DNA from: Deltaproteobacteria bacterium
Lineage (GTDB): Bacteria > Desulfobacterota > Binatia > HRBIN30 > CADEER01
Assembly (NCBI GenBank): GCA_029262455.1
Contig: JAJCZJ010000020.1
Coordinates: 325,078 to 389,077, forward strand
Length of the DNA stretch: 64,000 bases
Direction: 5' to 3'
The translations under genes were made by a program, and so were the position numbers. Of the stretch, positions 36,645 to 51,316 are shown one piece after another. Positions within the stretch are counted from its first letter, which is position 1, and every line of letters begins with the position of its first letter. The notes below the pieces were generated by a model. The model saw nothing but the letters and a program-made list of their open reading frames with translations, did no database searches and was not told where the DNA came from.

Positions 36645-37630
36645 CAGACCAAGCAACCGCACCGCGCCAGATCGACATCCGCATCTCCACCATCGGCGGG
36701 CACGAGTATCGGTTGAATCTCCGCGAAGACGCCGTCCATTTGCGCGACCTCTTTACTCGATTCGTCAACCGACCGGCGACTGGGGCTGTCCGAGCTCCTG
36801 AATTCATCCAACTGCCCCTCGACGGAGGCAACGCTTCCTGCACGATCGCCGTCGATCAGATTGTGTCGATCGTCACCACGCCACCAGTCGTCATCGAAGT
36901 GCAACAACCCGCCGTCGAGCCAAACGTAATTCCAGATGTGCCGGCAGTGGTCGCGCCACCCCAGATCCGGCGCGCACACTACACGGTGATCGACGACTTT
37001 CTCACCGTCGATGAGCACCGAGACATGCTGGCGTTGGCATTGAGCGAGAAGGACAGCTTCGAACCCGGTACGGTGCAGGGTGAACCGAGTCCACACCGAC
37101 GAAACAGCGTCATCATGAACTTCGCAGACTCGGCGCACGGAACACTGCTGACAAGTCGTCTGCTCGTTTGGTTTCCATTGATCGCAAAGGCGCTGAAGGA
37201 ACCACTGTTTCCGCTCAAGACGGTCGAGTCGCAACTGACCGCCGCCAACGACGGAGACTACTATAAGCCTCACCTCGATACCGACGGGAAGACCCCCGAT
37301 TTCCGGGTCATCGCGTGCGTCTACTATTTCTTCCGCGAGCCAAAAGGGTTCACGGGCGGCGACCTACGCCTCTATGATTCCATCGAAACAGGTGGCGAAA
37401 TCTGTCAGGCGGATTCCTTCCAAGACATTCGGCCGGCAAGCAATCGCTTGGTCGCATTCACCTGCGAGACCTTCCACGAGCTGCTCGCGACTCGCTGCCC
37501 GTCCAAGGATATCGAAGACAGTCGTTTTGCGGTGACCGCGTGGTTTCACCGCAGCGGCGCACCGGACCCCGACGCCAAGTTCGGTTGGGGACATTATCGT
37601 TGCGGCGAAGTTCCGGAGGCACTGCGGTGA
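36641..37630 (+). CDS. Unassigned N-terminal ~80-aa domain fused to a 2OG-Fe(II) oxygenase (PF13640-like)
   Basis: ATGA overlap with the upstream stop. YYKPHLDTDG (HxD), GGDLRLYD, NRLVAFTCETFHEL, RFAVTAWFH. Confidence 0.7.
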   Translation: MTDQATAPRQIDIRISTIGGHEYRLNLREDAVHLRDLFTRFVNRPATGAVRAPEFIQLPLDGGNASCTIAVDQIVSIVTTPPVVIEVQQPAVEPNVIPDVPAVVAPPQIRRAHYTVIDDFLTVDEHRDMLALALSEKDSFEPGTVQGEPSPHRRNSVIMNFADSAHGTLLTSRLLVWFPLIAKALKEPLFPLKTVESQLTAANDGDYYKPHLDTDGKTPDFRVIACVYYFFREPKGFTGGDLRLYDSIETGGEICQADSFQDIRPASNRLVAFTCETFHELLATRCPSKDIEDSRFAVTAWFHRSGAPDPDAKFGWGHYRCGEVPEALR

Positions 37631-37802
37631 GCAACGCGAGGGCTCGCTGCTCGAGACCACCGATCCTCGCGCTTTCGACCAAAGGTAGCGAAGGCGCGCC
37701 CCCCGCCGCACCGGGTACTGTCATCAGCAGCCGGCGAGTCAGCCACCTCGCTTTCGCAGGCTTGACCGAAGCCCCCGGGATCAGAGGCAGAGTGCGTTTG
37801 TC

Positions 37803-38930
37803 ATGATCTTCACGGTTTTCGTCGCACCGGTCGAACCAACGCAACAGTGGCGTGCCGATCTCCTCGAATACTCATGGCGACGCATCAAGCAGAGCGGCGA
37901 ACTGATCCGGCTGGCGCCAACCGCCCCCGGACGCGCACCAGGTAGCAGAGGGAGAGTCGGGAGAACCGTCAAAACGTTCGACTGGAACCCCCACCCGTAC
38001 ACCCAGGACGTGTACGCCGGCTATCAGACAACCGCCGGCGTACTCGAGTGGTTGTTCAACGAGCCGGCCGAAGGAACAGTCCTTTTGCTGGATTCGAGCT
38101 GCATCCTACGCCACCCGGTTACAGCAGAGGTCGAACCAGGCCACGTGCGCGGGTCGTCGTGGCCGGAGATCCCACTTGGCACGGACGGCCCATTCGGCCT
38201 GCATGATGATCTGAAGTTTCTCGAATCCTATTGCGTCAACCGCAAGCTCCCCCTCGCTCCCGTGCGGATGCCGATTTTGATCCACACGGCGGACCTGCGA
38301 AAAATCGCGGCGCGCTGGCTCGAGCTTACGGCGTTGATTCGATCCCATGCCGTAGGCGTTCACGGAAAATACCTTCATGCAGATCGCGTCGCCTACACCG
38401 TCGCCGCCGCCGAATACCGCATCCTCCACACCCTTGACGACCTCGGCACTACGACGTCGGATACCGGCAAAGACGTTCCGATCGTCGACTACAGCACACC
38501 GATCAAGTCCAAACAGGGAGAGATCGTCTGGGACCGAAAGGTCTATCGACCATGGGAGGCAGTCTACACCGAAAATGCGCGCGCAGGCGCAGGCAGAGAC
38601 GTACTCGGGATCCTGAACGAGATGGTGACGCGCCGCGAATCGGGAGCCGAGCTTGCGGCAACACGTCCACAGCGGTGCTACGGGGTGCGGGAAGCACGAA
38701 TTCTCGACGACATTCATCTCGAAGTACCTGGGTGTGCCGACTTGATGTCGCTGAATCAATCCGCGGCTGCCATCTGGGAGCTGTGCAACGGCGAGAACAC
38801 ACTCGCCGAGATCGTCAGCGAGCTCGAGAGACAATTCGACGCGTCACGCGAAACCCTCATGACATCCGTCGAATCGACGGCGAGGGATTTGGAAAGCTCA
38901 GGTGCCATCGAGCTGGAGGAGCTGTTCTGA
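37803..38930 (+). CDS. GT95/GT96-like glycosyltransferase fused to a C-terminal PqqD-like domain
   Basis: IFTVFVAPVEPTQQWRADLLEYSWRRIKQSGELIRL, AGVLEWLFNEPAEGTVLLLDSSCILRHPV, ILIHTADLRKIAARWLELT, ADRVAYTVAAAEYRILH. C-terminus: LMSLNQSAAAIWELCNGENTLAEIVSELERQFD. Confidence 0.6.
   Translation: MIFTVFVAPVEPTQQWRADLLEYSWRRIKQSGELIRLAPTAPGRAPGSRGRVGRTVKTFDWNPHPYTQDVYAGYQTTAGVLEWLFNEPAEGTVLLLDSSCILRHPVTAEVEPGHVRGSSWPEIPLGTDGPFGLHDDLKFLESYCVNRKLPLAPVRMPILIHTADLRKIAARWLELTALIRSHAVGVHGKYLHADRVAYTVAAAEYRILHTLDDLGTTTSDTGKDVPIVDYSTPIKSKQGEIVWDRKVYRPWEAVYTENARAGAGRDVLGILNEMVTRRESGAELAATRPQRCYGVREARILDDIHLEVPGCADLMSLNQSAAAIWELCNGENTLAEIVSELERQFDASRETLMTSVESTARDLESSGAIELEELF
38679..38927 (+). other. PqqD-like domain, copy 2, C-terminal
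   Basis: Last ~82 aa of ORF 37803..38930. Confidence 0.6.
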
Positions 38931-40156
38931 TGGCATCCAAAGCAAAACCAAGCGCCAAAAAGTCCGTGCCGACCACAAAAACAAAGCACGCAGCAAAACG
39001 TGCCAAAGCCTCGGCCAAGAAAACAGCCAAAGCGCCGCCCGGAAAAGCCACGACAGCACGGGCGAAGAAGACCACCAAGACTCCGGCCTCCAAGAGCCCC
39101 AAAACCCGGACCCAAAGGACCCGGGCCCAAAAGCCCCGGGCCCGCAAAGCCGCGCTCAAAGTATCGCAAACGGTGTCGCCCAAAGGATCGCAAACGACTT
39201 CGAAGACGGAGCGAACGACCCCATCGCCTCGCGCAAAGTCGCGGCAGGCCACAAAACAACCCCAGATCTTCGTGTCGATCGCCTCCTACCGCGACCAGTT
39301 TCTTCACTTCACCATCGAGTCGGTGCTCAAACAGGCGACGTACCCAGAACGGTTGACCTTCGGCCTCTGCTGGCAAGCCGACGACACCGAGCAACTCGAT
39401 CAATACCTGCACGATCCGCGTTTCCGCATTCGCAAGTACCCGTACTACGCGAGCCTCGGCTACGGTTGGGCAAGAGCCGAGATCCAAAAACTATACGCCG
39501 GCGAAGAGTACCATCTACTGATCGATTCTCACACGTATCTCGCCAAGGGGTGGGACGAGAATCTGATCGCGCAACTCGAGAGCAAGCCGGGCGAGAAGCC
39601 GCTACTGACGACCAGCTCACCCCCTTTCACCTTCGACAATGACGGCAACGTCGTAATCCCGTGGCAAGGGACCGAACACGACGGCGTGCCGCTGATGAAG
39701 TGCGCACGAATCCAACCGGCAGGGTGGGTCGACATCCAGATGTCCAATGAGCGCAAGTCCACCAAACATCAAACCACCGGATTGGTGTGCTGTAACTTTG
39801 TCTTCACGCACGGGGCTTGGATCCGCGAAGTGCCCGAGGATCCGGCGATGATCAACGCCGGCCACGAGTCAGCCCTTTCGGTTCGTACCTTCACCCACGG
39901 ATACGACATCTACCTGCCCGACGAAATTCAAATCTGGCACCTCGACTACAACAACTACCCGAACGGTGAGCGCAACAAGGTATGGGAAGCAAAGTCCGAC
40001 AGTTGGCAGTCTGAGGGCACCGAGATCATGCTGCGGCGGCTGCAAGCGCTGTTCTACAACCGCGGCGACCGCGCCTCGCTCGGCCGCTACGGACTCGGTC
40101 GATCCCGCACCGTAGCCGACTGGGCGGAGATCACCGGACTCGACCTCAGTGACTGA
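38930..40156 (+). CDS. Lys/Ala/Thr/Pro-rich basic N-terminal extension (~111 aa) fused to a GT60 Gnt1-like (PF11397) glycosyltransferase
   Basis: Inner part of ORF 38552..40156. ATGA overlap with the upstream stop, GGAGGAG SD at 38915-38921. MASKAKPSAKKSVPTTKTKHAAKRAKASAKK..., then QIFVSIASYRDQFL, LLIDSHTY. Confidence 0.65.
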   Translation: MASKAKPSAKKSVPTTKTKHAAKRAKASAKKTAKAPPGKATTARAKKTTKTPASKSPKTRTQRTRAQKPRARKAALKVSQTVSPKGSQTTSKTERTTPSPRAKSRQATKQPQIFVSIASYRDQFLHFTIESVLKQATYPERLTFGLCWQADDTEQLDQYLHDPRFRIRKYPYYASLGYGWARAEIQKLYAGEEYHLLIDSHTYLAKGWDENLIAQLESKPGEKPLLTTSSPPFTFDNDGNVVIPWQGTEHDGVPLMKCARIQPAGWVDIQMSNERKSTKHQTTGLVCCNFVFTHGAWIREVPEDPAMINAGHESALSVRTFTHGYDIYLPDEIQIWHLDYNNYPNGERNKVWEAKSDSWQSEGTEIMLRRLQALFYNRGDRASLGRYGLGRSRTVADWAEITGLDLSD

Positions 40157-41942
40157 CGTCGACTCCGCACTACTGCCAATTCCCCAACCCGAGTGGCGTG
40201 CTTCTTTATCCGGCGACGGCGCGGCAGTTGATGTCCTGATTTTAAGCAAGGACCGCGCCTGCCAACTCGACGGACTGCTGCGCACGATGCGCGCGTTCCT
40301 GACCATCCCACACCGGAAATACGTACTGTACAAGACGTCTAATTTGGCGTTCGAGCGCGGCTACGACATGCTCCGCCGGTGGAATCCCGAGGTCGAGTTC
40401 ATCGACGAGGCGCAAACGTTTCGACAATGCTACCTCGACCTCGTGGCAAGGATCGCCGCCGGGCCTGGTCGCTACTGGATGCCGGTGATGGACGACATGA
40501 TCTTCACTCGCACGTTCACCGCACAGCCACTCATCGACCTCCTCGACACAGACGAGGACGTGCTGGCGATCTCTCTGCGCCTCGGCGAGAACATTACCTA
40601 TTGCTACACCCGAAACGCTCCAACCACACCTCCGGACTTCAGCAACGGACACCGTTGGGAATGGAGAACAGCCAGCCCAGGCTACTGGAACTATCCAATG
40701 TCCGTCGACGCCAACATCTACCGCACGGCGGAAATGGCCGAATACATCCCGACCCTCCAATTCGGCAAGGCTGAAGTCATCGAGGCACGCATGGCCGGGG
40801 TGCCCTTGAACCGCCCCCATATGCTGTGTGAACCGACCCCCAGCGTACTCAATCTCGCGATCAACCGCGTTCAACACACCTTCAAGAATCGGCACGGCAC
40901 AATCACGCCAGAAGCCCTGAACGGCGCTTTCCTCGCGGGTTTCGCGATGGATGTGCGCCCGTTGCTGGGTCGAACCTTCAACGCCTGTCACGTCGAGGTC
41001 GAGCTGTCCTTGGTCCCCGATGCGCGCGAGCGCCCCGGCGCAACGCCCCTCTCTTCGACCGGCTGGAAACCACAGCGAAACGGCGCCGTCGTCGTGACCG
41101 AGAGCCATGCTGTCGTGACGCTCAAGAGGAACGGAACGAAGCTCAAACTCAATCAGAGCGCCGAAGAGATCTGGAAACTGTGCGACGGAACACGAACGCC
41201 CGAGGACATCCAAAACGAGCTCGCGCAACATTTTGACGCAACCCCGCGCCAGCTTCACAGCGGCGTACGAAGCGCCCTGGCGAATTTCATCAATCACGGC
41301 CTTCTCCGTCAGGAACGCCCGGAAGGCGCATACCGCCGCATCGACCTGCGCCAGATTCCCTGCTTCGTGATCAATTGCGAAGCCGATGCTGAGAAGGACA
41401 CGTTGATGAAGCGTCAGCTCGCTGAGCTCGGGATACCGTACGAACGTGTACCCGGGATCGCCGCAAGCCCGGATTGGGTCGGCGTCGCGCTGTCGCACCT
41501 CAAAGTGCTTCGCCTGACCCGCTCGACGACACCCTTCCTGGTGCTCGAGGACGATTGCTTGTTCAACGACCGCTTCCAACCAGTGTGGCAAGTACCGGTC
41601 GAGGCCGACGCCCTGTATCTCGGCGTTTCCGAGTTCGGCCTCGAGACCCCCGGTCACTTCAGCTGGGGCCGCCGGCGCAAGAACCAATGGAGACCCTACG
41701 ACCGGTCCTTCCTCCGCATTTTCAACATGCTCGCACGCCATGCGGTCGTGTACCTTTCCAACGACTACTGCGAGCAAGTCATCCAATCGCAAATCGAAGC
41801 ACTGACGAATCGAAGTTTGCCGTACCCTGGGGACATCGGCTGCGCGATGCTGCAAGCATCGCACGTCGTCCTGACCCCGAACGAACCGATCTGCCGGCAA
41901 ACCGGTCGTGACTCGACCGTGCGTCCGTTGCCGGAGCTCTGA
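40149..41942 (+). CDS. Three-domain protein: GT-A-like domain, central PqqD-like domain, GT25-like domain
   Basis: VDVLILSKDRACQLDGLLRTM; central KLKLNQSAEEIWKLCDGTRTPEDIQNELAQHFD; C-terminal IPCFVINCEADAEKDTLMKRQLAELGIPYERVPGI...FLVLEDDC. Confidence 0.6.
   Translation: MTDVDSALLPIPQPEWRASLSGDGAAVDVLILSKDRACQLDGLLRTMRAFLTIPHRKYVLYKTSNLAFERGYDMLRRWNPEVEFIDEAQTFRQCYLDLVARIAAGPGRYWMPVMDDMIFTRTFTAQPLIDLLDTDEDVLAISLRLGENITYCYTRNAPTTPPDFSNGHRWEWRTASPGYWNYPMSVDANIYRTAEMAEYIPTLQFGKAEVIEARMAGVPLNRPHMLCEPTPSVLNLAINRVQHTFKNRHGTITPEALNGAFLAGFAMDVRPLLGRTFNACHVEVELSLVPDARERPGATPLSSTGWKPQRNGAVVVTESHAVVTLKRNGTKLKLNQSAEEIWKLCDGTRTPEDIQNELAQHFDATPRQLHSGVRSALANFINHGLLRQERPEGAYRRIDLRQIPCFVINCEADAEKDTLMKRQLAELGIPYERVPGIAASPDWVGVALSHLKVLRLTRSTTPFLVLEDDCLFNDRFQPVWQVPVEADALYLGVSEFGLETPGHFSWGRRRKNQWRPYDRSFLRIFNMLARHAVVYLSNDYCEQVIQSQIEALTNRSLPYPGDIGCAMLQASHVVLTPNEPICRQTGRDSTVRPLPEL
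41079..41315 (+). other. PqqD-like domain, copy 3, internal
   Basis: aa 311-389 of ORF 40149..41942. Confidence 0.6.
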
Positions 41943-41977
41943 TCGAACGAGCCGTTCCTCCAAGCCGGATCCATACA

Positions 41978-44900
41978 GTGAAAAAGGGCACAATCCACGA
42001 TCTCTTCTCCCGCACCGCTTGCGTCGTGTCCGACAGGCACCGATTCATCTATTTGACGGCGCAAAACGCCACGTCTTCCCTGAAGGCCGAGCTGTCGAAC
42101 GAGCACTGCGGCGGCGTTGTCCTCGCCCGCGCACAGGTGGCTGATAAACTCTGGAACCAATACTTTACGTTCGCCTTCCTGCGCGACCCGCTGACGCGCT
42201 TTCTCTCCGCCTATCAGGAAGTGTCTCTGCACATGGAGCGTGACAAACTCGAACCGCGCCCTTTCGGCCGGATGCCCGACGGCCTCGATCGCTTTCAGGC
42301 ATTTCTCGCGGACGTCGAGCAGAACGGTCCGTGGAACGAGCACATTGCACTCCAGCTAGCCTTCGTCGAGCGCCGAAGAATCGACTTTTGGGGGCTCGTC
42401 GAAACGCTGCAAGACGACTTCCAACAAATCTACACCCGGCTGGGATTGGGGACCTGTCCCGTTCTGCCAAAACGCCGCTCTCGCAGCGGCCGTGAGGAAA
42501 AGGACGGCATCTCGCGCTTCGCCTTCCATCCGGAGGACCTCGATGCGACGACAATTGAGCGCATCTACGACCTCTACCGTGAGGACGTCTTGCTGATTCG
42601 AGCGGTTCGCCCCGACGCACCTGAAATGCAGCCGCACTCAACCCGTGCCGCACCGCCCCCCGGAATGGTGCAGGTGGCGATCGCCCTGGCCAACGGCGGC
42701 GAATACTCCCTCGAACTTCCGCCCGGCCAACCAGAGCTGGGCGCTCTGCAAGCTGTGGTATCACCACAACAATCCGATGGACGTTTTCTCGGCCCGCAAG
42801 TTCTGCAGGTTCCACTGCGTGGTGGCAATTCCGCGCTGACGTTTTCCACGCAGCACCTCGTTCGTCTCGAGCTACGCCCCCCCGACGCCCGAGAACTGCG
42901 CCGAATCGAGGCGCCGGCCACCGGCACGGGCAACTCCGGAGTGAATCTAATAAACGTCGGGAACAAGCGGCCGCCAACCGAGGACCCATCGAGCAATATC
43001 GACGAGGCGCATCTCGGTGGCTACATTCGTGCGGCCAATACACCGATTCTCCACAGCGCCGCAGGCCCACACGGGGACCGGGGAACCTGGAATCCGCTGC
43101 TGTGGCGTTGGGCAATCGAAGATCTCGACGTGCGATCAGTGATCGATATCGGATGCGGCGAGGGACACGCCGCCGGATTTTTCTCCGACGGCGGGTGTGA
43201 AGTGCTCGCGCTCGATGGCAGCCTTCAAGCGCGCTATTCCAGCGTTGTTCCAGATCGCCACGTCGTACACGACTTCGTCGAGGGACCTTTCGTCCCAGAG
43301 AAAAGCTTCGACATGGCCTGGACCTGCGAGTTCGTCGAACACGTCGAGGCGCGTTTTCTCCACAATTTCCTGGCTACGATCGCATCGAGCCGCAAGTACG
43401 TGATGATGACGTTCGCCAGCCCGACACAAACAGGCTGGCATCACGTCAATTGCCAAGAACAGGGTTACTGGGTCGATCAGTTGGGACGCCTCGGGTTTCG
43501 CCTGGACGACGATCTAACCGAGAGAGGCCGAGCCTTGGCTCACTCTCATTTTCGCGAACGTGGCCTGGTCTTCGTCCGGCACCATCGAAAAGGCGAGTCA
43601 TCGAAGTCCACAGAACCGTCGCTGCGCGCGACTGCCGAGAGTCACTGTCTCGACCCGCTGCCGGTCCAATCCATGCAGGTCGCACAGCGCGAGAGCGATG
43701 CCTTCTACCTGTTTGTCGACATCTTCGTGCATCCGACCGCACCGAGAATCGTGGCGATCTCACCACCCTATGGCGAAGACTGGAATCCTAACGTTGTCGG
43801 CATCGACTACGATGCCGTCGACCTTGTATTCGGTGACATACGCGTCCGCGGCCGCTGCCTGCGGCACCGTCTCGACTCCTGGGAGCCTTGCATGCTTCTC
43901 GAGTTCGAGGACGAAGACCTAACAGAGCGCATTCGGGCCAACGACGAGATCAACGTCACGATCGAGGCCGGCTCGCATTCGTCGTCCTTCGTCCTGACGA
44001 CCCGCCCAGCGCCAGCCTACGATGTCGCAATGAGCCTCGTCGTACGCAACGAAAACCGCTGGATCCGCACGTTTCTCGACTACTACCTCGACTGCGTCAA
44101 AGCCGACCACGTCTTCATCTACGACAACGGAACGTCGGAACAAGACCAGCTGCTTTCCATTCTTCACCCGTACCGAGAGCGCGGGCAAGTGACGTACATC
44201 CCGTGGGATTTTCGCTGGCGCAACCGCATCGACCGCAAGATGATCGGCCAACCGACACAGGAGGCTCACTCCCTTGCAAGATTCGCAAACACCGGGTGGA
44301 TCGGCTTTCTCGACATCGACGAGTTCCTGCGCTTGCCGCACAGCACCCTGCCACAATTTCTCGCTCGCTTCGCGTCCGCGGAGGTCGACGGACTCTCGTT
44401 CGGTATCCGGTGGTTTTCTTACGAGGGCCCGCTTGCACTCGATGAGATTACGAGTGTGCCACTGCAATTCCTCCACTCGCGCCGCAATGAGCTCGGCCGA
44501 AAACGGCAGAAGTTCTTCGTCAAAGGCGGCGGCTCGAAGTTTCTTCGCTTGCATTGGCTCGAAGACGGAGGTCGCGAACTGCCCATCGACGACACCGAGA
44601 TCTACTTTCACCACTACGATCAACGTCCCGGCCGTTTCGAAGAAGGAAAGCAAATCGGAGGAGCGCGCGACGAATACATGCTGCGCTTCGCCGACCAGCT
44701 CTCGCGCCCCGAGCGGCACAGAGCCCCTCTAACCGAGAGAGGATGGATCACCCACATCAACTCTTCGATCGAACGCGCCGAACGCGACACCTCCAAACTC
44801 ACCCCGGAAGTCCTCGCCGTCGACGGCATGTGCGGGCGCTACACCCGTCACTTCTACAACAACCTCTGCAGCTTCGGAGGATGCCGCTACCTCGAGATCG

Positions 44901-45385
44901 GCAGCTATCACGGGGCCAGCACCTGCGCGGCAATCTTCGGCAACGACGTATCCGCCGTGTGCATCGACAATTGGACACAGTTTCACGGCAAGCGAAGCCG
45001 CTTCGAGGATGCCCTACGACGCTTCCGAGGAGATCGCTCGGTCCGAGTCATCGAGCAAAACTGCTTCGAAGTAGACGCCTCAAGCCTCGGCCCATTCGAC
45101 ATCTATCTCTACGATGGCGACCACAGCCAGCAGAACCAGTACCGAGCCTTGCAGCACTTCGTTCAGACGCTGGCCAAGCTCGCCGTAGTCGTCATCGACG
45201 ACTGGAATCGTCGGCATATCCGTCGGGGGACACAGGACGCGATTCGGGACCTCGAACTCGATGTAATCTTCGACCGAGAGATCCTACTGCCAACCGACCA
45301 GACGGCGGATGAAAACCGTGACGCTGGAGCGCGAACTTGGTGGAACGGACTCTACATCATGCTCGTTCGCAGTAGAACGCAGTAG
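41978..45385 (+). CDS. 1135-aa five-module enzyme: sulfotransferase, shared ~75-aa domain, class I SAM-MTase, GT92/Glyco_tranf_2_4-like, second SAM-MTase (Methyltransf_24-like)
   Basis: FTFAFLRDPLTRFLSAY; MVQVAIALANGGEYSLELPP...LQVPLRGGNSALTF; VIDIGCGEGHAAGF; SLVVRNENRWIRTFLDYYL...FIYDNGTS...FLDIDEFL; YLEIGSYHGAST...IYLYDGDHS...VVIDDWN. GTG start has a weak SD. Confidence 0.65.
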   Translation: MKKGTIHDLFSRTACVVSDRHRFIYLTAQNATSSLKAELSNEHCGGVVLARAQVADKLWNQYFTFAFLRDPLTRFLSAYQEVSLHMERDKLEPRPFGRMPDGLDRFQAFLADVEQNGPWNEHIALQLAFVERRRIDFWGLVETLQDDFQQIYTRLGLGTCPVLPKRRSRSGREEKDGISRFAFHPEDLDATTIERIYDLYREDVLLIRAVRPDAPEMQPHSTRAAPPPGMVQVAIALANGGEYSLELPPGQPELGALQAVVSPQQSDGRFLGPQVLQVPLRGGNSALTFSTQHLVRLELRPPDARELRRIEAPATGTGNSGVNLINVGNKRPPTEDPSSNIDEAHLGGYIRAANTPILHSAAGPHGDRGTWNPLLWRWAIEDLDVRSVIDIGCGEGHAAGFFSDGGCEVLALDGSLQARYSSVVPDRHVVHDFVEGPFVPEKSFDMAWTCEFVEHVEARFLHNFLATIASSRKYVMMTFASPTQTGWHHVNCQEQGYWVDQLGRLGFRLDDDLTERGRALAHSHFRERGLVFVRHHRKGESSKSTEPSLRATAESHCLDPLPVQSMQVAQRESDAFYLFVDIFVHPTAPRIVAISPPYGEDWNPNVVGIDYDAVDLVFGDIRVRGRCLRHRLDSWEPCMLLEFEDEDLTERIRANDEINVTIEAGSHSSSFVLTTRPAPAYDVAMSLVVRNENRWIRTFLDYYLDCVKADHVFIYDNGTSEQDQLLSILHPYRERGQVTYIPWDFRWRNRIDRKMIGQPTQEAHSLARFANTGWIGFLDIDEFLRLPHSTLPQFLARFASAEVDGLSFGIRWFSYEGPLALDEITSVPLQFLHSRRNELGRKRQKFFVKGGGSKFLRLHWLEDGGRELPIDDTEIYFHHYDQRPGRFEEGKQIGGARDEYMLRFADQLSRPERHRAPLTERGWITHINSSIERAERDTSKLTPEVLAVDGMCGRYTRHFYNNLCSFGGCRYLEIGSYHGASTCAAIFGNDVSAVCIDNWTQFHGKRSRFEDALRRFRGDRSVRVIEQNCFEVDASSLGPFDIYLYDGDHSQQNQYRALQHFVQTLAKLAVVVIDDWNRRHIRRGTQDAIRDLELDVIFDREILLPTDQTADENRDAGARTWWNGLYIMLVRSRTQ

Positions 45386-45412
45386 AAACGCCGCAAATAT
45401 CGAAACCGGGAA

Positions 45413-45892
45413 TTACTCCTCGCCCTTGGTTTCTTTTCCCACGGGAGCCGGTCGGCCCTCGTCGTCATCCGAAGCAATGAGCTTTTTAGCACCGAAGCCA
45501 AAGAGCGCCGCTGCGGCCACAGCCGCGGCGCCGCCTGAAACCACAGGCGCATCGACTGCTGCCTGAAAGGCGGTCGGAACCGCCGTACTGGGAAGGCCCG
45601 GATCGAGGACCGTCGGGACCTGCGTCGGTGCGGCAGTAGGATTGAGGCAAAGTGACGGCGAATTGGTACATTGCGTCGTCCCAGCTTCGACAGGCGCGAC
45701 GAATCCAAGATCAGACGAGACCGGTACCGATAAGATCACCGGCGTTACCCAGGCAATCTTGAGCGCCGAGCGCCTTGAAATATCGTCGGAAAAAGTCGGC
45801 CGCGCCGCCTTCCCGTCCGTCACCAGCTCGCCCCGCAGCCGCTCGATCTCCTCGAGAAGCTCCTTTTTCGTCTTCGTTCCGTCACCCGCCAT
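45413..45892 (-). CDS. Pro/Thr-rich small protein, paralog of 31963..32469, with a C-terminal hydrophobic anchor and acidic tail; candidate substrate/precursor 2
   Basis: ORF 45413..45997 trimmed to ATG 45892, which has a GGAGAGGG SD upstream. MAGDGTKTKKELLEEIERLRGEL...DISRRSALKIAWVTPVILSVPV, P/T/S/A-rich middle, GGAAAVAAAALFGFGAKKLIASDDDEG. Confidence 0.65.
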   Translation of the reverse strand: MAGDGTKTKKELLEEIERLRGELVTDGKAARPTFSDDISRRSALKIAWVTPVILSVPVSSDLGFVAPVEAGTTQCTNSPSLCLNPTAAPTQVPTVLDPGLPSTAVPTAFQAAVDAPVVSGGAAAVAAAALFGFGAKKLIASDDDEGRPAPVGKETKGEE

Positions 45893-46048
45893 TATAGACC
45901 CTCTCCAATGCTGCCGCTGCCATAGCAAGAATCCGACCCAAATCCCAGGCCTGCGACATCGATTTCCTGGATTCGCGGTGAGACACCCCCTGCGCACTCG
46001 TAGCAGCGGCTCGGCAGCCTATCCCGATCAAGTGGGAGAATGGGCGTG

Positions 46049-46744
46049 TCATCCCACCCCGCAGACCTCCCGACCCGTGGCTTCACGATAGTAGGACACA
46101 TCCTCGGCGCAAATGCGCAAAGCCAGTTCTCGCGTCTCCCCATCATAGAAAAGCTCCGGAACCGGCATCCCGTGCCGGCGAAGCCAGCCCGGGGAACGAT
46201 CTGTCGCGCGCTCTCGAATCGTCACGTCCTGCGGCGAAGGATTCTCGTGCAGGACCGGCGCGGAAACCGAAACTCTCTCGTTTAAGCTCGCCAGCCCCCG
46301 CGAGAGATCTTCCACCGCAACGACTTCGTCGAAGTCTATCTGATGCGTGTTTCGGACCTGCGGCACCAAATGGTGCTGGGGTTCGATCCCGCGGGTCTGA
46401 ACATGCTGCAAGGTGTAGAGGAACTTGCGAAAGCTCTTGTCCCGCAGCGAGAGCTTCCGGTCATCGTCGGCAAAGCACCACAACGTTTCATCGCGCACGA
46501 CCCACAAGGTGTAGAACCCGACGAGTCGGCGAAGCGGATCGCGCACAAAGAAGACCTTCCAATAGTCACGACAGCGGTCGATGTCGCCGTGCCAAATCAG
46601 GAAAGCGTCAAGGTCTTCGACCGGTTGCTTCGTCTTCTCCTCAATCGCTGCCTTGCACCACGATCGGATGCTGTTCGAACCACACTTGGGACTATAGACG
46701 GCAAGTACTTCGAGTGGATCCGCGGCTAGGAAGAAGTGGGCCAT
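46049..46744 (-). CDS. Sulfotransferase (Sulfotransfer_2-like)
   Basis: MAHFFLAADPLEVLAVYSPKCGSNSIRSW (5'-PSB-like), KVFFVRDPLRRLVGFY (3'-PB-like). The frame stays open upstream through the heptamer repeat to GTG 46900, so an N-terminal HESPVTS-repeat extension cannot be excluded. Confidence 0.65.
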   Translation of the reverse strand: MAHFFLAADPLEVLAVYSPKCGSNSIRSWCKAAIEEKTKQPVEDLDAFLIWHGDIDRCRDYWKVFFVRDPLRRLVGFYTLWVVRDETLWCFADDDRKLSLRDKSFRKFLYTLQHVQTRGIEPQHHLVPQVRNTHQIDFDEVVAVEDLSRGLASLNERVSVSAPVLHENPSPQDVTIRERATDRSPGWLRRHGMPVPELFYDGETRELALRICAEDVSYYREATGREVCGVG

Positions 46745-46759
46745 GGGGATTCTATGTGT

Positions 46760-46878
46760 GTGATTGGTGACTGGTGATTCGTGACTGGTGACTGGTGATT
46801 CGTGACTGGTGACTGGTGATTCGTGACTGGTGACTGGTGATTCGTGACTGGTGACTGGTGACTGGTGACTGGTGATTG
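46760..46878. repeat. 17 tandem heptamers GTGAYTS, with a 21-bp super-repeat GTGACTGGTGACTGGTGATTC
   Basis: Counted by hand from the sequence: 119 bp = 17 x 7, lying between the GT60-like stop (46893) and the sulfotransferase ATG (46744). Confidence 0.9.
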
Positions 46879-46892
46879 GTTGGGCAAAAGTT

Positions 46893-47900
46893 CTACACAC
46901 CGGCGCCGGCCTGGTACTCTTCGAAAGTGACGCAGCTCTCCCAGTCGGACGGCGACCGGATTGTCACTGGGTCGGGGTTCGCGCCACTAAACGCATCCGG
47001 ATGCGCGCGTTTGGCTCGGAAGTCAAAGCCCGAAAAAATCTCGTAGTCCCGCAAGGTCCGCACCCGACCGAAACCGTACGGTCCGGGCAGCGGTGATTCA
47101 TAGCTCGAGAGCAGCTGTTCCAAACGGGCAAACGCCTCGCGGTTGCGGCGCTCGACGACGTCTTCCCCCTGCTCCCAATGGCGCCGCGGCGGCCCGTCGT
47201 TGTGCTGCATGTGCCATGCCACGACTTCCGTTGGAAGAAAGAAGTCGTACCCCCAGGTGTACGAACGAATGGTCACATTCAGCTCTTCGCCCCAATAGTA
47301 TTGTCCGGGATCCTGCGGCACCTCGACATTCCAGATGCCGCGCGAGAACGCGAAGTTGCCGTTGACAAACCGTGTACGCCCCGGCTTCTTGACGTTGGGG
47401 GCTCCAAAGTCGAACCACGGCGCCCAATGGTCCGACGCGCTCCAGCCGCTCACCTTGGTCGTCGGCACACCCATTTCAGTACGACGCTGCGGCACACCAT
47501 CCTCGTCGTACCAGAATAGGGGAGCATTCATGCTGAGAACGGGTTTCTCACTGGGGAGAGCCTCCAGCATCTCGATCAGCCGCGCGTCCCAGTCGGGCTC
47601 GAGCTTCATATGGGAATCGATCTGCAGAGTGTAGGGTTCACCTCGCCACAGAGACTGCGCAATATTACGCGCCCAGGGGCCGCCCTGGCTTGCCGCAATC
47701 GTCGTATCCACAAACCGAAACCGCGGATCTCGGCGAAAATCCTCCAACGGCACCGGCGCTTTTGGGTCACGCTGCCAGCAAATTCCGAAACGCAGCGAAT
47801 CTGGAGCACTTGCCGTTTCGATCGCGTCACGCAAGGTGCGCGGCAACTCGGGGTCCGTGTACGACGCGATCGCGACGAAGATCTGAGGGTGGGAAGCCAC
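46893..47900 (-). CDS. GT60 Gnt1-like (PF11397) glycosyltransferase, paralog of 38930..40156 without the basic extension
   Basis: MASHPQIFVAIASYTDPEL, LQIDSHMKL, and the C-terminal GFGRVRTLRDYEIFSGFD parallels GLGRSRTVADWAEITGLD. Confidence 0.65.
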   Translation of the reverse strand: MASHPQIFVAIASYTDPELPRTLRDAIETASAPDSLRFGICWQRDPKAPVPLEDFRRDPRFRFVDTTIAASQGGPWARNIAQSLWRGEPYTLQIDSHMKLEPDWDARLIEMLEALPSEKPVLSMNAPLFWYDEDGVPQRRTEMGVPTTKVSGWSASDHWAPWFDFGAPNVKKPGRTRFVNGNFAFSRGIWNVEVPQDPGQYYWGEELNVTIRSYTWGYDFFLPTEVVAWHMQHNDGPPRRHWEQGEDVVERRNREAFARLEQLLSSYESPLPGPYGFGRVRTLRDYEIFSGFDFRAKRAHPDAFSGANPDPVTIRSPSDWESCVTFEEYQAGAGV

Positions 47901-48115
47901 GATTCATACTCTTGCCGAAGCCAAGGTCGCACCGCAAGTGACAGAGACACCCGTCTATAGCCGCTCCACCGCTTGAATCTTGGTCGAGGACTCGGGATTC
48001 CAAACAACCTCCTCATGGCTCCAAGATCGGGATCTTCGCAGACAATCGACCCGCAAGGTTGCCCGAGCCACTGCGAGCGCGGCCGCAAACCCACCCGATC
48101 CACTCGACCCCCGGA

Positions 48116-49114
48116 TCAGACCTTGTGGGCGAGCCCCTTTTCCCGCGCCGTGTACTGATCGAAGATCCAGGCGTAGGTTTTCTCGATACCGTCGCGCAAT
48201 GAAGTAGACGGAGCCCAACCGAGCTTCTCAATGATCATCGTGTTGTCGCTGCTCCGCCCGTCGACACCCTTCGGAGCATCCAGTTTATAGGTTCGCTCGA
48301 GCCGAATTCCGGCAATCTCTTCGACGACATCGACCAGATCATTGATGGACACTGTCTCACTTGAGCCGAGATTGATCGGGTCCGAGACACTGCTCTCCAT
48401 CAGCCGACGAATTCCCTCGATGCAGTCATCGATGTACGTAAACGAGCGACCCTGGTTTCCATCGCCCCAGATTTCAATGCGATGATCGCCGCGGACTTTT
48501 GCTTCGATCACCTTTCGACAGATCGCCGCGGGTGCCTTCTCGCGACCACCGTCCCAGGTCCCATGAGGCCCATACACATTGTGGAAGCGAGCCACTCGCG
48601 TCCGCATCCCAAAGTCCTCCATGAAATGGCGGCACATACGCTCGGAGAACAGCTTCTCCCACCCGTACCCATCTTCCGGCATCGCCGGGTACACGTCGTC
48701 CTCTTTCAAGGGAGTGACATCATAGCCACGTTGCTTGTCCGCCCTGTATACGCATGCCGACGACGCGTAGAAAAAGCTCTCGGTGCCGCACACATTCGCA
48801 GCTTCCAACAGATGGGTATTGATCAAGACGTTGAGCATGCACAGAGCCTTGTTGCTCTCGATGAAGCCCATGCCGCCCATATCACAGGCCATCTGGTACA
48901 CGACTCCGACCCCCTCGCAGACATCCATGCACGGACTCCGCAACCGCAGATCCAGCTGCCGATTGTCGACGTCGTCGAAGCACTGGTACCACTCTTCGAT
49001 CGGTTTGAGATCGACCGCGCGTAGGTTGGGCTCACCACGCTGGCGCAAGTCGGCAACAATCTGCCCCCCGATAAACCCGCCCGCGCCTGTGACTAGAACA
49101 GTAGAAGCAACCAT
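48116..49114 (-). CDS. GDP-mannose 3,5-epimerase-like extended SDR
   Basis: VTGAGGFIGG, ACDMGGMGFI, FFYASSACVY, RFHNVYGPHGTWDGGREKAPAAICRK, EIWGDGNQGRSFTYIDDC, GVDGRSSDNTMIIEKLGWAP. Collinear with plant GME as I recall it. Confidence 0.8.
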   Translation of the reverse strand: MVASTVLVTGAGGFIGGQIVADLRQRGEPNLRAVDLKPIEEWYQCFDDVDNRQLDLRLRSPCMDVCEGVGVVYQMACDMGGMGFIESNKALCMLNVLINTHLLEAANVCGTESFFYASSACVYRADKQRGYDVTPLKEDDVYPAMPEDGYGWEKLFSERMCRHFMEDFGMRTRVARFHNVYGPHGTWDGGREKAPAAICRKVIEAKVRGDHRIEIWGDGNQGRSFTYIDDCIEGIRRLMESSVSDPINLGSSETVSINDLVDVVEEIAGIRLERTYKLDAPKGVDGRSSDNTMIIEKLGWAPSTSLRDGIEKTYAWIFDQYTAREKGLAHKV

Positions 49115-49228
49115 GGTCAGTCTGTATTTGCCTCTAACAGCTCACGTTGCAAGGATCAGCCGGGAACAATCGATGCATTCACTTCCTCATGCTTCGCCCG
49201 AAAGAGTAGACTCGAAGGTCAGGCAACA

Positions 49229-51316
49229 ATGACTGAGAAATCGCCCTGGCATGACGCTCTGAAGCTGGCGGCGTCAGGAAGTCGCAACGGAGTAGCGGCC
49301 ATCGTAGACGAGGCGCTCGCGGCTTCTGCTGTCAGCTCGAAGTACGAAACTATAGCTGCGAGAATCTTCCTTCTCGCCGCAGACTTCCCAAAGGCCGTCG
49401 CAGCTTGGGAACGTGCTCGACAAAAGGCGCAGACGGACGAAGACACTCGTGAGGTGAACATCGTGCGCGCGCTCGTTTCAGGGATGCTCGGAGACTTCGC
49501 GACCTCTCTGGACACCTACCACCAAGTCGTCAACGAGGGTTCCGACATCGCAACAATCCTCGCCGCAATCGAGGTCGCAGTGCGCGCCGAAGCCTGGGAA
49601 AAAATCCAACGTTGGCAACCGATCCTGGAAAAGCACGCGTCAGCAAAGCTCGAGCACAACCTGCGCCTCGCCGATCAGCTTCGACTCGCTGGCCGAGTCG
49701 ACGATGCTCGAGCGCTCATCCTCAGAGCCGTCGCGGCATCGACAGATCCGAAGGTCGCCAGGCCAGCGGCCGCACAACTTCTGATCGTCTGCGGCGCCTA
49801 CGACGAAGCGAGGCAGCTGTTCGAAGCACAGATCTCAGCAGGCGTAGCCTGTGCTTCGTCTCATGCGGGCATGTCTACCCTTCAGCTGTGGCACGGAGAC
49901 GTGGGCACCGCGTTGCAGGCCGCAGCAAACGCCTGCCGAATCAATCCGGAACTGAAGACAACGCGAAAAGTTGAGGCCATTGGGAAACTTCTCGACGGGG
50001 AGCACGCAGCGGCCATCGAGGCTTTGGACTCTTTGGTGAACTCCGGCGAAGCAAACGATGCTGAAACTCATGCATGGCGCGCTGAAGCGCTTGTGAGACA
50101 GGGCAAACACGATCTCGCAATGGCTGCCGCGCGCAACGCTGGAGATCTCAGTCCAGATCACGCCACTTTCATCGCGGTGCGCGTCATCGAAGCGCTCACG
50201 GCAGTACGCAGCGGGCGACGACCAACGGGAGACGGCACACTCGTCCGTGCCGTTGAGGTGCTCTGCGGTGCGCGCGACGCGTCTCTGCTACGAAAAACAA
50301 TGCGGCGCGTCGCGGCCGGTCCCTGGATGGGTCCGGACAGAGTATTGGCAGCTGGGACACGGTGGCTCCGCCGCATCGGGATCCCTGTCGCCGAAATCGC
50401 CACACCGGCGGAGGTCGAATCCATTTTGGAACGAAGTCTGGAGGCCATGGGTGGAAATCGTAGCCCCTTTCATCCGACACGAGTGGAGGGTGGAAAGCTC
50501 AAGCCGCTGCGCGTCGAAGCGCCGCCGCGCACACTCGTGAGAGATGCCCAACACGCGGTTCGGTTCGGCGGCTACGAGACCGCGCGCCGACGGCTCGACC
50601 TATTGATCGAGCGTTACCCTGGCTGGCCGCAGCCTTGGTACTACCGCGCCGAGATCTTGATGTGGCTCGGTCGCTACGACGAAGCTCGGGAAGACCTGGA
50701 GATCGCCCTGTCCCGGAAGCACAGTGATCCGGAAATCGAACACGGATACTGGCACCACATCGGCCTCGCCGGCGTGCATCTCATGCAAGGGAGACCCGAG
50801 ATCGCGCTGCGAACCATTGATCGCGTGCGGCGCCGTATGATCGGATCTCCGGCCCAACCGTACTACGCCTGGCGCGGCGAGATCCTTCGAGCCTTGGGAC
50901 GAAGCGAAGAAGCAAGGGATGCGCTGCAGGAGGTTTGCCCACCTGGCGGTCGCCGTCTCGGTTCGTGGCTTACGTTGGCAATGGTCTGCCACGATCTCGG
51001 AGAAACTCAGCGAACCAGGCAGATCCTCGTGCAAGCGGCGGAGAGCGCACCATCCTTGATGCTCGACCTTGCGCGGTCACCACAAGTCGCCCGATCTCTC
51101 AATCGGCTACAAGGTCAATCCGGCTGCGACACACTGTCGGACCGGGAGGTTCTCGAACTCCTAGCTCGAATGACAAAAGCTCTGCGCGGCAATCGCAGTG
51201 CCTCTTGTGTCACCTTTGTCGACTCCGATGGGAGTCTCCGTGCGATCCCACCGAACGGCTTCTACGAAAACGTCGCCCGACACATCGAGATTGATGGCAT
51301 TCGCGCCAAGTTGTAG
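49229..51316 (+). CDS. TPR-like all-helical repeat protein, function unknown
   Basis: 695 aa, Ala/Leu/Arg-rich helical repeats (for example YYRAEILMWLGRYDEAREDLEIAL). Divergent from the epimerase gene. Confidence 0.6.
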   Translation: MTEKSPWHDALKLAASGSRNGVAAIVDEALAASAVSSKYETIAARIFLLAADFPKAVAAWERARQKAQTDEDTREVNIVRALVSGMLGDFATSLDTYHQVVNEGSDIATILAAIEVAVRAEAWEKIQRWQPILEKHASAKLEHNLRLADQLRLAGRVDDARALILRAVAASTDPKVARPAAAQLLIVCGAYDEARQLFEAQISAGVACASSHAGMSTLQLWHGDVGTALQAAANACRINPELKTTRKVEAIGKLLDGEHAAAIEALDSLVNSGEANDAETHAWRAEALVRQGKHDLAMAAARNAGDLSPDHATFIAVRVIEALTAVRSGRRPTGDGTLVRAVEVLCGARDASLLRKTMRRVAAGPWMGPDRVLAAGTRWLRRIGIPVAEIATPAEVESILERSLEAMGGNRSPFHPTRVEGGKLKPLRVEAPPRTLVRDAQHAVRFGGYETARRRLDLLIERYPGWPQPWYYRAEILMWLGRYDEAREDLEIALSRKHSDPEIEHGYWHHIGLAGVHLMQGRPEIALRTIDRVRRRMIGSPAQPYYAWRGEILRALGRSEEARDALQEVCPPGGRRLGSWLTLAMVCHDLGETQRTRQILVQAAESAPSLMLDLARSPQVARSLNRLQGQSGCDTLSDREVLELLARMTKALRGNRSASCVTFVDSDGSLRAIPPNGFYENVARHIEIDGIRAKL

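Follow-up and report, generated by a model that had tools for sequence, protein, structure and literature searches.

Gene content and layout of the locus

The window (the whole 64,000-nucleotide stretch of DNA that was analysed) contains a gene island of roughly 20-25 kb, whose boundary gene encodes a GDP-mannose 3,5-epimerase (GME, or GM35E) homologue (Table 1). The island combines P/T-rich small proteins, a prolyl-hydroxylase-like oxygenase, two GT60-like glycosyltransferases (GTs), PqqD-domain proteins, sulfotransferases and fucosyltransferase-like enzymes with an HxRRGD motif; it is conserved, and its apparent function is to attach sugars and sulfate to proteins rich in proline and threonine.

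Table 1. Features of the island and of its flank, in order of position in the window; L numbers denote related loci.
Feature	Coordinates	Strand	Evidence or remark
GT11 (alpha-1,2-fucosyltransferase family)	24158..24916	-	Pfam 99.7 bits, above cut-off; HVRRGD at residue 136
876-aa protein	24941..27571	-	57% identical homologue beside the L090 cluster
MBOAT	27498..28907	-	
GT77-like GT (PF03407)	29367..30590	+	opens the plus-strand operon
Small protein A, 168 aa	31963..32469	+	paralogue of small protein B
PqqD-domain protein, 454 aa	32612..33976	+	Pfam
Conserved core protein, 205 aa	33981..34598	+	counterparts in L089 and L090 (55-65% identity)
Core fucosyltransferase-like protein, 667 aa	34641..36644	+	HLRRGD at residue 199; O-FucT 25.5 bits
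2OG-Fe(II) oxygenase, prolyl 4-hydroxylase type	36641..37630	+	PF13640, E = 3.9e-15
PqqD-domain protein, 375 aa	37803..38930	+	Pfam
PF11397 GT60-like GT, copy B	38930..40156	+	Pfam
PqqD-domain protein, 597 aa	40149..41942	+	Pfam
1135-aa multidomain protein (Sulfotransfer_2, methyltransferase, GT92, methyltransferase)	41978..45385	+	closes the plus-strand core operon
Small protein B, 159 aa from M36	45413..45892	-	homologues in L083, L085, L088
Sulfotransfer_2-family sulfotransferase	46049..46744	-	Pfam PF03567, E = 4.6e-08
Heptanucleotide tandem repeat GTGACTG x17 (21-nt period x5.8)	46760..46880	.	between GT60-like copy A and the sulfotransferase start
PF11397 'GlcNAc' GT (GT60-like), copy A	46893..47900	-	Pfam, E = 1.1e-43; 215 nt downstream of GME
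GME/GM35E, 332 aa	48116..49114	-	sequence, residues, AlphaFold/Foldseek

The boundary gene is the first of a minus-strand run (GME, GT60-like copy A, the sulfotransferase and small protein B) that extends from 49114 down to 45413 and meets the end of the last plus-strand gene at 45385, leaving a gap of 27 nt between the multidomain gene and small protein B. This is the geometry that an earlier, sequence-only reading of this DNA had described when it placed the gene at the head of a convergent operon. The convergent layout recurs in L091 and L092, and likewise in L085 up to the end of its sequence, and is thus repeated in three of the four relatives that carry GME. A promoter and terminator scan of positions 45200..49400 gave nothing usable, with no sigma-70-like promoter and no terminator in the gap between GME and copy A, and Rfam had no match anywhere in the window.

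Several genes of the run have orthologues in the same surroundings. Those of GT60-like copy A are 64-80% identical and lie beside the same cluster in L083, L085, L086, L088, L089 and L090, and those of the sulfotransferase are 41-55% identical in L086, L088 and L090. For copy A, 403 homologues were recovered altogether. The sulfotransferase probably starts at the ATG at 46744; the longest ORF begins with GTG at 46900, and the orthologues do not begin to align until residue 53 of that long form. The small proteins A and B are candidate glycosylation substrates: B has an N-terminal helix, KTKKELLEEIERLRG, followed by SRRSALKIAWVTPVILSVP and a P/T-containing tail, and A shares this helix and carries a SRRTALKVAWTAPVILAIP segment and a PT-repeat tail (27% P, 24% T).

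On the plus strand, the GT77-like protein has orthologues of 47-55% identity in L090 and, close to GME, in L086 and L088. The sole PDB match of the oxygenase was a prolyl 4-hydroxylase (6t8m, E = 4.2e-05), and the 205-aa core protein had no Pfam match. GT60-like copy B, whose longest ORF begins at 38552, has a probable ATG at 38930 that gives it a K/A/T-rich N-terminal extension. Beyond the operon, a further minus-strand run consists of the MBOAT gene, the 876-aa protein and, last, GT11. None of GT60-like copy A, GT11 and the O-FucT-like protein had a match when searched by sequence against the PDB. In the literature on PF11397/GT60 together with PqqD, prolyl hydroxylase or sulfotransferase, we found no description of such an island; it is apparently undescribed and a more novel lead than GME itself.

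The boundary gene and its assignment to GME

The ORF occupies exactly the interval at which a GME gene had been proposed, on the minus strand, starts with ATG and includes the stop codon in its end coordinate. Four of the five motifs that had been cited in support of that proposal are literal in the translation, namely DMGGMGFI (residues 78-85, preceded by 'AC' in the window and by 'AA' in plants), FFYASSACVY (114-123), RFHNVYGPHGTWDGGREKAPAAICRK (176-201) and WGDGNQGRSFTYIDDC (216-231). The fifth is there with another spacing: it reads GVDGRSSDNTMIIEKLGWAP, with five residues from SDN to KLGWAP where four had been given, a trivial miscount.

Judged from the sequence scores, the resemblance to GME is far beyond chance. 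With phmmer against the PDB, residues 6-326 matched the GME chains 8sg0 (E = 1.8e-93, 317 bits) and 2c59 (E = 3e-92, 313 bits), and the next family for this single sequence was GDP-L-fucose synthase (E = 1.2e-26, 97 bits). A profile built from 30 orthologues gave 360 bits to GME against 114 bits to the next family, UDP-glucuronate 4-epimerase. Identity is 47% over 316 aa both to Arabidopsis GME (AtGME) and to 8sg0. The generic Pfam family Epimerase matched as well (E = 4.4e-37), as did GDP_Man_Dehyd. No NCBIfam model was passed, the best being GDP-L-fucose synthase (Fcl), which scored 113 bits where its cut-off asks for 500, so that no curated threshold stands behind the GME name. NCBIfam itself seemingly holds no GME model.

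The eight residues that define GM35E according to a review of these enzymes (PMC8787198) are all present in the window protein and are invariant across 86 aligned sequences. They comprise the triad S119/Y150/K154 ([ST]xnYx3K; S143, Y174 and K178 in AtGME), the acid-base pair C121/K193 (C145/K217), the Cys-acidifying R287 (R306), and R223 and N179, the equivalents of the diphosphate-binding R243 and N203. GDP-fucose synthase uses a His as catalytic base and a Lys to acidify the Cys, whereas GM35E uses Lys and Arg for these roles (PMC8787198), and Lys193 and Arg287 occupy these positions in the window protein. The glycine motif for NAD+, GAGGFIG, lies at residues 10-16.

The AlphaFold model of the protein (pLDDT 83, pTM 0.85) gave GME chains as the best 14 PDB matches in Foldseek (TM 0.83-0.88, E 6e-33 to 1e-30), with other SDRs at E about 1e-22. 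The GAGGFIG motif, the Pfam Epimerase match and these TM values to GME crystal structures are those of an extended SDR with a Rossmann fold, the NDP-sugar-active (CEP1) group in which GM35E is placed. The sequence-only reading had allowed that the enzyme might instead group with another epimerase or dehydratase; by bit scores and by Foldseek matches it groups with GME and not with one of those. Sequence scores, catalytic residues and predicted fold thus all agree with the proposed assignment and indicate that the window protein is a GME/GM35E orthologue.

From what is known of the Arabidopsis and Methylacidiphilum enzymes, the conserved residues suggest how the reaction would proceed. NAD+ would be bound at GAGGFIG and C4 of GDP-alpha-D-mannose oxidised via Y150, K154 and S119; C5 and C3 would then be epimerised by the C121/K193 pair, the pKa of the Cys being lowered by R287, and C4 would be reduced again as the closing step. 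GM35E products include GDP-L-Gul besides GDP-L-Gal (PMC8787198), L-Gal being the major one at equilibrium (15% versus 5% L-Gul).

A bacterial rather than a plant-type enzyme

The label 'plant-type' that the gene had received does not fit: identity is 64-81% to bacterial orthologues as opposed to 47% to the plant enzymes, and in our tree the window sequence nests inside a large bacterial clade, apart from plant sequences. Nor did the argument from bacterial rarity hold, considering that orthologues occur in at least 596 species genomes from many phyla. A bacterial GME was already characterised in 2019: MfGM35E of Methylacidiphilum fumariolicum SolV (UniProt I0K0X9), the first of its kind and about 50% identical to AtGME (PMC6678494). 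The window gene is an ordinary bacterial member of a known family. In source records, its orthologues are commonly labelled just 'nucleoside-diphosphate-sugar epimerase'.

The plant enzymes (Arabidopsis 2C59, 2C54, 2C5A and 2C5E; Myrciaria dubia 8SG0 and 8SKB) share with the window protein the extended-SDR fold and the eight residues. They differ in length (377 aa versus 332 aa), since the window protein lacks the plant N-terminal (~25 aa) and C-terminal (~30 aa) extensions, and in the glycine motif, which is GxxGxxG in the window and GxxGxxA in Arabidopsis GME. MfGM35E, compared here by its published description (PMC6678494), is a bacterial short form like the window protein and has the same catalytic Ser/Tyr/Lys, Cys/Lys and Arg. 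Its gene adjoins a glycosyltransferase and a methyltransferase gene (PMC6678494), a context that has been read as LPS-related, whereas the window gene borders an island of GT60-like, P4H-like, PqqD and sulfotransferase genes.

Linkage of GME to the island in related genomes

GME relatives of 75-78% identity lie beside orthologues of island genes in four cases (L083, L085, L086/L091 and L088/L092), and three others of 77-81% identity (L082, L084 and L087) lie in other contexts without the island. Among the best 80 GTDB orthologue loci no island gene recurs, apart from generic GT2 similarity of 28-31% in four of them and one weak multidomain match in L080. Conversely, the island core is found in L089 and L090 without GME within 10 kb on either side of the reference GT. 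The link between GME and the island is therefore not universal.

In L089, from Luminiphilus, a UDP-xylose synthase gene is present instead of GME. We had considered this SDR (L089:4948-5913) as a GDP-fucose synthase that replaces GME, and rejected this, as it is a UDP-glucuronate decarboxylase with 431 bits to human UXS1; an exchange between L-Fuc and L-Gal thereby loses the support that a GDP-fucose synthase would have given. Also rejected was a protein of ~700 aa with GT10 and GT61 domains, encoded beside GME in L085, L086 and L088, as a counterpart of the fucosyltransferase-like protein at 34641: it had no tblastn match in the window and a BLASTP E of 3.

Candidate users of the GME product

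The sequence-only reading had proposed that GDP-L-Gal is used by the fucosyltransferase-like GTs at 34641 and 24158. The HxRRGD motif is a mark of fucosyltransferases and both proteins carry it, as HLRRGD and HVRRGD, respectively; the HLRRGD of the 34641 protein is kept in its L089 and L090 orthologues (48-59% identity). GME is the sole nucleotide-sugar gene that Pfam found in the 64-kb window, and several fucosyltransferases accept GDP-L-Gal (PMC8787198). The motif in both GTs, the single nucleotide-sugar gene and the known tolerance of fucosyltransferases argue in favour of GDP-L-galactose use by these enzymes, which is plausible. Against it speak the Pfam O-FucT score of the 34641 protein, which at 25.5 bits is under the gathering threshold of 31.5, the occurrence of its conserved core without a nearby GME gene in L089 and L090, and the distance of 24 kb between GT11 and GME. 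GDP-fucose genes may also lie elsewhere in the genome and serve the fucosyltransferase-like GTs.

Taking the gene together with its surroundings, we consider it likely that this bacterial GME at the boundary of a glycosylation island supplies an L-hexose, probably L-Gal, for the O-glycans of the island. One of the island transferases would add the sugar to O-glycans on P/T-rich proteins, the leading candidates being the two HxRRGD proteins, and the transfer would pull the unfavourable GME equilibrium forward.

A different product of the same enzyme might be the one that matters, GDP-L-gulose or another minor epimer, in which case the user would be a GT that is not fucosyltransferase-like (GT60-like, GT77-like or the GT92 domain). 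The GT60-like GT is indeed the nearest one downstream of GME, an adjacency repeated in L083, GME and GT77 are found together in L086 and in L088, GM35E does yield GDP-L-Gul, and BlmG-type homologues have been proposed as suppliers of L-gulose. Nevertheless, known GT60 enzymes use UDP-GlcNAc (PMC8724618), L-gulosyl specificity is known for no island GT and L-Gal dominates at equilibrium, which makes this alternative unlikely.

We also find it improbable that GME provides sugar in general for an exopolysaccharide or LPS whose synthesis is encoded at another place in the genome, and that it borders the island by chance, with no functional tie: the boundary linkage holds in the window and in four independent metagenomic or MAG relatives, despite rearrangement of the order of the GME and GT60-like genes. 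What speaks for such a role is that the neighbours of 64-70% identical orthologues in 77 genomes are mostly polysaccharide genes (GT4, ~18/137; WecG/GT26, 15; GT2, 6; GMD, 4; exosortase and Wzy), that the three close relatives L082, L084 and L087 have no island context, and that GME sits at the extreme edge of the island, followed by the 215-nt gap. Finally, another extended SDR activity (GDP-L-fucose synthase, UDP-sugar 4-epimerase or UDP-glucuronate decarboxylase), to which the generic Pfam matches, the sub-cut-off NCBIfam match and the common label of the orthologues could point, is extremely improbable and already close to refuted at the sequence level, since GME is ahead of every other solved family by about 220-250 bits, the base is Lys193 and not His, the Cys acidifier is Arg287 and not Lys, and UDP-sugar 4-epimerases lack the Cys/Lys pair.

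Comparison with known pathways

The setting of the window GME departs from that of the plant enzymes: its neighbours form a glycosylation island, and genes for ascorbate synthesis are absent from the window. We dropped an L-galactose pathway of the ascorbate type from consideration, since no Pfam match in the window points to an enzyme of that pathway. GDP-L-fucose synthase (GMER/Fcl/WcaG) is, like the window GME, an extended SDR with a GDP-hexose substrate and a catalytic Cys that serves 3,5-epimerisation, but it requires the 4-keto-6-deoxy substrate made by GMD, and the window contains no GMD gene. BlmG (Q9FB21) and the A201A-pathway GME are bacterial homologues that give L-gulose or L-galactose to a dedicated glycosyltransferase of their cluster. 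Those clusters lead to small-molecule antibiotics, whereas the likely acceptors in the window are ribosomally made P/T-rich proteins, and the window, unlike them, has no NRPS, PKS or nucleoside genes.

For the island rather than for GME, a close comparison is with protist GT60 pathways, such as mucin-type O-GlcNAc initiation in Dictyostelium and T. cruzi and the glycosylation of Skp1 hydroxyproline. They have in common with the island a P4H-type 2OG oxygenase, GT60-like, GT77-like and fucosyltransferase-like enzymes, and Pro/Thr-rich acceptors. The island differs in being bacterial, in its additional PqqD-type peptide-binding domains, sulfotransferases, methyltransferases and GME, and in that its activities are predicted only.

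We put forward a broader scheme as a tentative possibility: GME would be the dedicated sugar supplier of a bacterial glycosylation pathway that reaches from Gammaproteobacteria (Luminiphilus syltensis) to uncultured lineages, with L-galactose replacing L-fucose in the clade of the window. Small secreted or membrane-anchored proteins that begin with a conserved helix and end in a tail of Pro/Thr repeats would be recognised by the PqqD-type domains, their prolines hydroxylated by the P4H-like oxygenase and the proteins O-glycosylated by the GT60-like transferases, after which further enzymes would extend, sulfate and methylate the glycan. In the window's clade, the HxRRGD fucosyltransferase-like enzymes would add L-galactose and not L-fucose. 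If true, bacteria would possess an equivalent of the mucin-, extensin- or Skp1-type glycosylation of eukaryotes.

In itself, the GME is one more sequence in a widespread family, with modest value as a possible L-sugar biocatalyst. Its context outweighs the gene, as GME is repeatedly attached to an island of eukaryote-like glycosylation enzymes, PqqD domains and P/T-repeat proteins. If L-Gal enters the glycans of the island, this would provide a concrete biological use of bacterial GDP-L-Gal, an example from nature of GME paired with a fucosyltransferase-like enzyme, and a route into a possible bacterial O-glycosylation of the mucin or hydroxyproline type. For experimental work there is a cultured organism with the core cluster, Luminiphilus syltensis NOR5-1B.

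Identity of the epimerase

The ATG-started ORF of 332 aa found in the ORF listing of the window (48116..49114, minus strand) had been read from sequence motifs as a GDP-mannose 3,5-epimerase (GME, or GM35E) gene. Four of the five motifs occur literally in its translation, while the fifth (GVDGRSSDNTMIIEKLGWAP) is present with one extra spacer residue. A phmmer search of all PDB chains matched residues 6-326 to the plant GDP-mannose 3,5-epimerases 8sg0 and 2c59 (E = 1.8e-93 and 3e-92; 317 and 313 bits), with GDP-L-fucose synthase as the runner-up family (1.2e-26, 97 bits), and this gap was larger with a profile of 30 orthologues (360 bits for GME versus 114 bits for the next family). By BLASTP, the protein is 47% identical to the crystallised plant enzymes over 316 residues. 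The resemblance goes beyond a chance likeness of short motifs.

GM35E enzymes are defined, in AtGME numbering, by the triad S143/Y174/K178, the couple C145/K217, R306, R243 and N203, and GDP-fucose synthase differs by a His for the base Lys K217 and a Lys for the Cys-acidifying R306 (PMC8787198). At the aligned positions, the window GME has S119, Y150, K154, C121, K193, R287, R223 and N179, all eight of which are invariant across 86 sequences (besides the query, 83 orthologues from bacteria and 2 plant enzymes). Its NAD motif is GAGGFIG. When an AlphaFold2 model (30-sequence alignment as input; pLDDT 83, pTM 0.85) was compared with the PDB using Foldseek, the top 14 matches were GME chains only (TM 0.83-0.88, E 6e-33 to 1e-30), followed by other SDR epimerases and decarboxylases at ~1e-22. 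Pfam matches were limited to two generic families, Epimerase and GDP_Man_Dehyd, and no NCBIfam model was passed, the best being Fcl (113 bits, cut-off 500). PDB scores, diagnostic residues and predicted fold thus all indicate GME rather than another SDR, and the sequence-only reading had named the gene correctly; as judged from sequence and model, the GM35E catalytic apparatus is complete. By homology, the enzyme would oxidise the sugar at C4 with NAD+, epimerise C5 and C3 via Cys121/Lys193, and re-reduce the intermediate to give GDP-L-Gal together with GDP-L-Gul.

Distribution of bacterial GMEs

The labels "plant-type" and rare in bacteria did not hold. In a neighbour-joining tree, the query fell within a bacterial group, and the midpoint root separated this group from the two plant sequences. 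Characterisation of a GME from bacteria, MfGM35E, dates from 2019 (PMC6678494), and other bacterial cases are BlmG and the A201A pathway. Unlike plant GMEs, the bacterial ones are shorter, without the N- and C-terminal extensions. Scanning one genome per GTDB species gave at least 596 confirmed relatives from many phyla, the best 80 of which are 64-70% identical to the window GME and come from Planctomycetota, Verrucomicrobiota, Acidobacteriota, Myxococcota, Alphaproteobacteria, Actinomycetota, Gemmatimonadota and Chloroflexota. Many further relatives (67-81% identity) were found in a large protein collection, some already carrying the JGI label GDP-D-mannose 3',5'-epimerase. The gene is one more member of a known and widespread family, and the conserved island at whose edge it lies is the more novel lead.

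Gene layout of the island

The island spans 29367..49114, and the divergent run at 24158..28907 probably also belongs to it. As had been proposed, GME heads a convergent run: GME, GT60-like copy A, a sulfotransferase and a small protein converge on a plus-strand operon, the two ends lying 27 nt apart, and this geometry is repeated in two relatives (L091 and L092). Among the long ORFs of the 64-kb window, Pfam scans recognised no nucleotide-sugar enzyme other than GME, and no GMD, Fcl or ManC was found.

Features of the island in the window, and GT10+GT61 fusions near GME in related loci
Feature	Position	Strand	Remarks
MBOAT, 876-aa protein, GT11	28907->24158	-	run divergent from GT77 gene
GT77-like GT	29367	+	first in plus-strand operon
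Cys-rich ORF	30086..31942	+	618 aa; sub-threshold Disintegrin match in C-terminal part (32.8 vs 35.1 bits)
Small protein A	31963..32469	+	P/T-rich
PqqD protein	32612	+	Pfam
205-aa protein	between 32612 and 34641	+	unknown
O-FucT-like protein	34641	+	667 aa; sub-threshold O-FucT
P4H-type 2OG oxygenase	36641	+	sole PDB match a prolyl 4-hydroxylase
PqqD protein	37803	+	Pfam
GT60-like GT, copy B	38930..40156	+	second GT60-like
PqqD protein	40149	+	Pfam
Sulfotransferase-methyltransferase-GT92-methyltransferase fusion	41978..45385	+	1135 aa; last in plus-strand operon
Small protein B	45892->45413	-	last of minus-strand run
Sulfotransfer_2 enzyme	46744 (probable start)->46049	-	Pfam
PF11397 "GlcNAc" (GT60-like) transferase, copy A	47900->46893	-	Pfam
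GME	49114->48116	-	first of minus-strand run; 215-nt gap after
GT10+GT61 fusion	L085:9034-11133	-	28.4 bits (cut-off 23.9)
GT10+GT61 fusion	L086:11375-13498	-	24.3 bits (cut-off 23.9)
GT10+GT61 fusion	L088:12190-14268	-	28.9 bits (cut-off 23.9)

Because the Cys-rich ORF and the GT77-like ORF share ~500 nt, the former probably starts further downstream. The longest ORF of GT60-like copy B (38552..40156) overlaps the preceding PqqD gene; its probable start, ATG 38930, leaves a ~110-aa K/A/T-rich N-terminal extension that the 300-306-aa orthologues do not have. A heptanucleotide tandem repeat (46760..46880; GTGACTG x17.3, 21-nt period x5.8, 96% matches) lies between GT60-like copy A and the probable true sulfotransferase start; it would be in frame in the long GTG-started ORF, and it may cause phase variation by strand slippage. 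Immediately upstream of the island, 16733..24116 (+) encodes three consecutive YfhO-family membrane proteins (707, 720 and 726 aa), the last two separated by a GT2 gene.

Conservation of the island

In 77 of the GTDB loci, the ORFs closest to GME on either side were called, and 137 of these ORFs were scanned against Pfam. GT4-type (~18), WecG/TagA (GT26; 15), GT2 (6) and GDP-mannose 4,6-dehydratase (4) were commonest, and exosortase, Wzy and ABC-2 transporters were also found: these surroundings are polysaccharide clusters. No fucosyltransferase family was among their 25 most frequent neighbour families. None of the best 80 of the at least 596 loci shared the island neighbours, the sole non-GME matches being generic GT2 similarity (28-31%, four loci) and one weak match (L080). 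Three other close relatives (L082, L084 and L087) also have GME in contexts unrelated to the island. In the near-identical loci L084 (10001-10999) and L087 (8001-8999), the GME is 77% identical and lies divergently beside genes for an FMO-like monooxygenase, a 2OG-FeII_Oxy_3 protein, a GT2 enzyme and an ABC transporter, a different context in which an oxygenase is again present.

In four loci (L083, L085, L086 and L088; GME 75-78% identical), island orthologues lie next to GME: GT60-like copies A (75-79%) and B (83%), sulfotransferase (55%), GT77 (55%), multidomain protein (59-70%) and PqqD 40149 (44-60%), together with the small protein. In L091 and L092, which extend L086 and L088, the run from GME through GT60-A, sulfotransferase and small protein converges on a run of multidomain, PqqD, GT60-B, PqqD, 2OG oxygenase and O-FucT-like genes; GME is the outermost island gene, with unrelated genes beyond. 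The island content, largely collinear between loci, comprises a P/T-repeat small protein, three PqqD proteins, the 205-aa protein, a ~670-aa fucosyltransferase-like protein with HxRRGD, a 2OG oxygenase of the P4H type, two GT60-like (PF11397) GTs, sulfotransferases and a fusion of methyltransferase, GT92 and methyltransferase domains. We found no description of this cluster type in the literature searched. In L083 (11079-20997), island genes are in many frame-shifted pieces and a ~2-kb RVT_1 (reverse transcriptase) segment splits the multidomain gene, so that the copy has either decayed and taken up a retroelement or been affected by indel errors in long reads.

The island was also found in several MAGs, and its collinear core, with 34-71% identity per gene, in two further genomes: Luminiphilus syltensis NOR5-1B (L089) and one of 12 Mb (L090). 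In these two, the 10 kb on each side of the reference GT contain no GME, and the L. syltensis core instead has a UDP-glucuronate decarboxylase (UDP-xylose synthase; L089:4948-5913, 431 bits to human UXS1). It thus seems that the core is conserved and that the gene supplying the sugar is its variable, swappable accessory, GME being the accessory in the window's clade. Since the linkage is conserved there, the GME product would be passed to an island transferase.

Possible use of the product by fucosyltransferase-like GTs

HxRRGD is a fucosyltransferase mark. The GT11 (99.7 bits, above the Pfam threshold) has HVRRGD; the 34641 protein (O-FucT 25.5 bits, below the threshold of 31.5) has HLRRGD inside the matched region, kept in its L089 and L090 orthologues. 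The sequence-only reading proposed that these two GTs could use GDP-L-Gal from GME. Fucosyltransferases are documented to accept GDP-L-Gal as donor, and in the mur1 mutant of Arabidopsis L-Gal takes the place of L-Fuc (PMC8787198). A ~700-aa fusion of N-terminal GT10 (fucosyltransferase) and C-terminal GT61 lies near GME in L085, L086 and L088, with no homologue in the window, and a faintly O-FucT-like protein immediately adjoins GME in L086 and L088. In a cyanophage, genes annotated as GMD, Fcl and GME accompany three for fucosyltransferases (PMC9602691). Donor acceptance, these neighbours and the cyanophage favour the pairing, making GDP-L-Gal use by the HxRRGD GTs plausible. Against the pairing with GME, both GTs could be served by GDP-fucose from genes elsewhere in the genome, and the 34641 family belongs to the core even without GME nearby.

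Small P/T-rich proteins as candidate substrates

Small proteins A and B are paralogues and align with small proteins of L085, L088, L089 and L090, sharing an N-terminal helix (KTKKELLEELExLR), a segment (I/V)(S/T)RRxALKxAWVAPVILSVP and a PT-rich repeat tail (in A, Pro makes up 27% and Thr 24%). Their genes accompany the P4H-like oxygenase, the GT60-like enzymes and three PqqD-domain proteins. RiPP recognition elements have the PqqD fold. In protists, the GT60 family initiates mucin-type O-glycosylation and Skp1 hydroxyproline glycosylation (PMC8724618). From these neighbours we infer that the small proteins are probable substrates of the island enzymes. More speculatively, the transferase receiving the GME product might be one of the HxRRGD fucosyltransferase-like proteins, and its acceptor a glycan on the P/T-repeat proteins. 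The SRRxALKxAWxxPVIL segment of A and B looks like a twin-arginine signal or membrane anchor.
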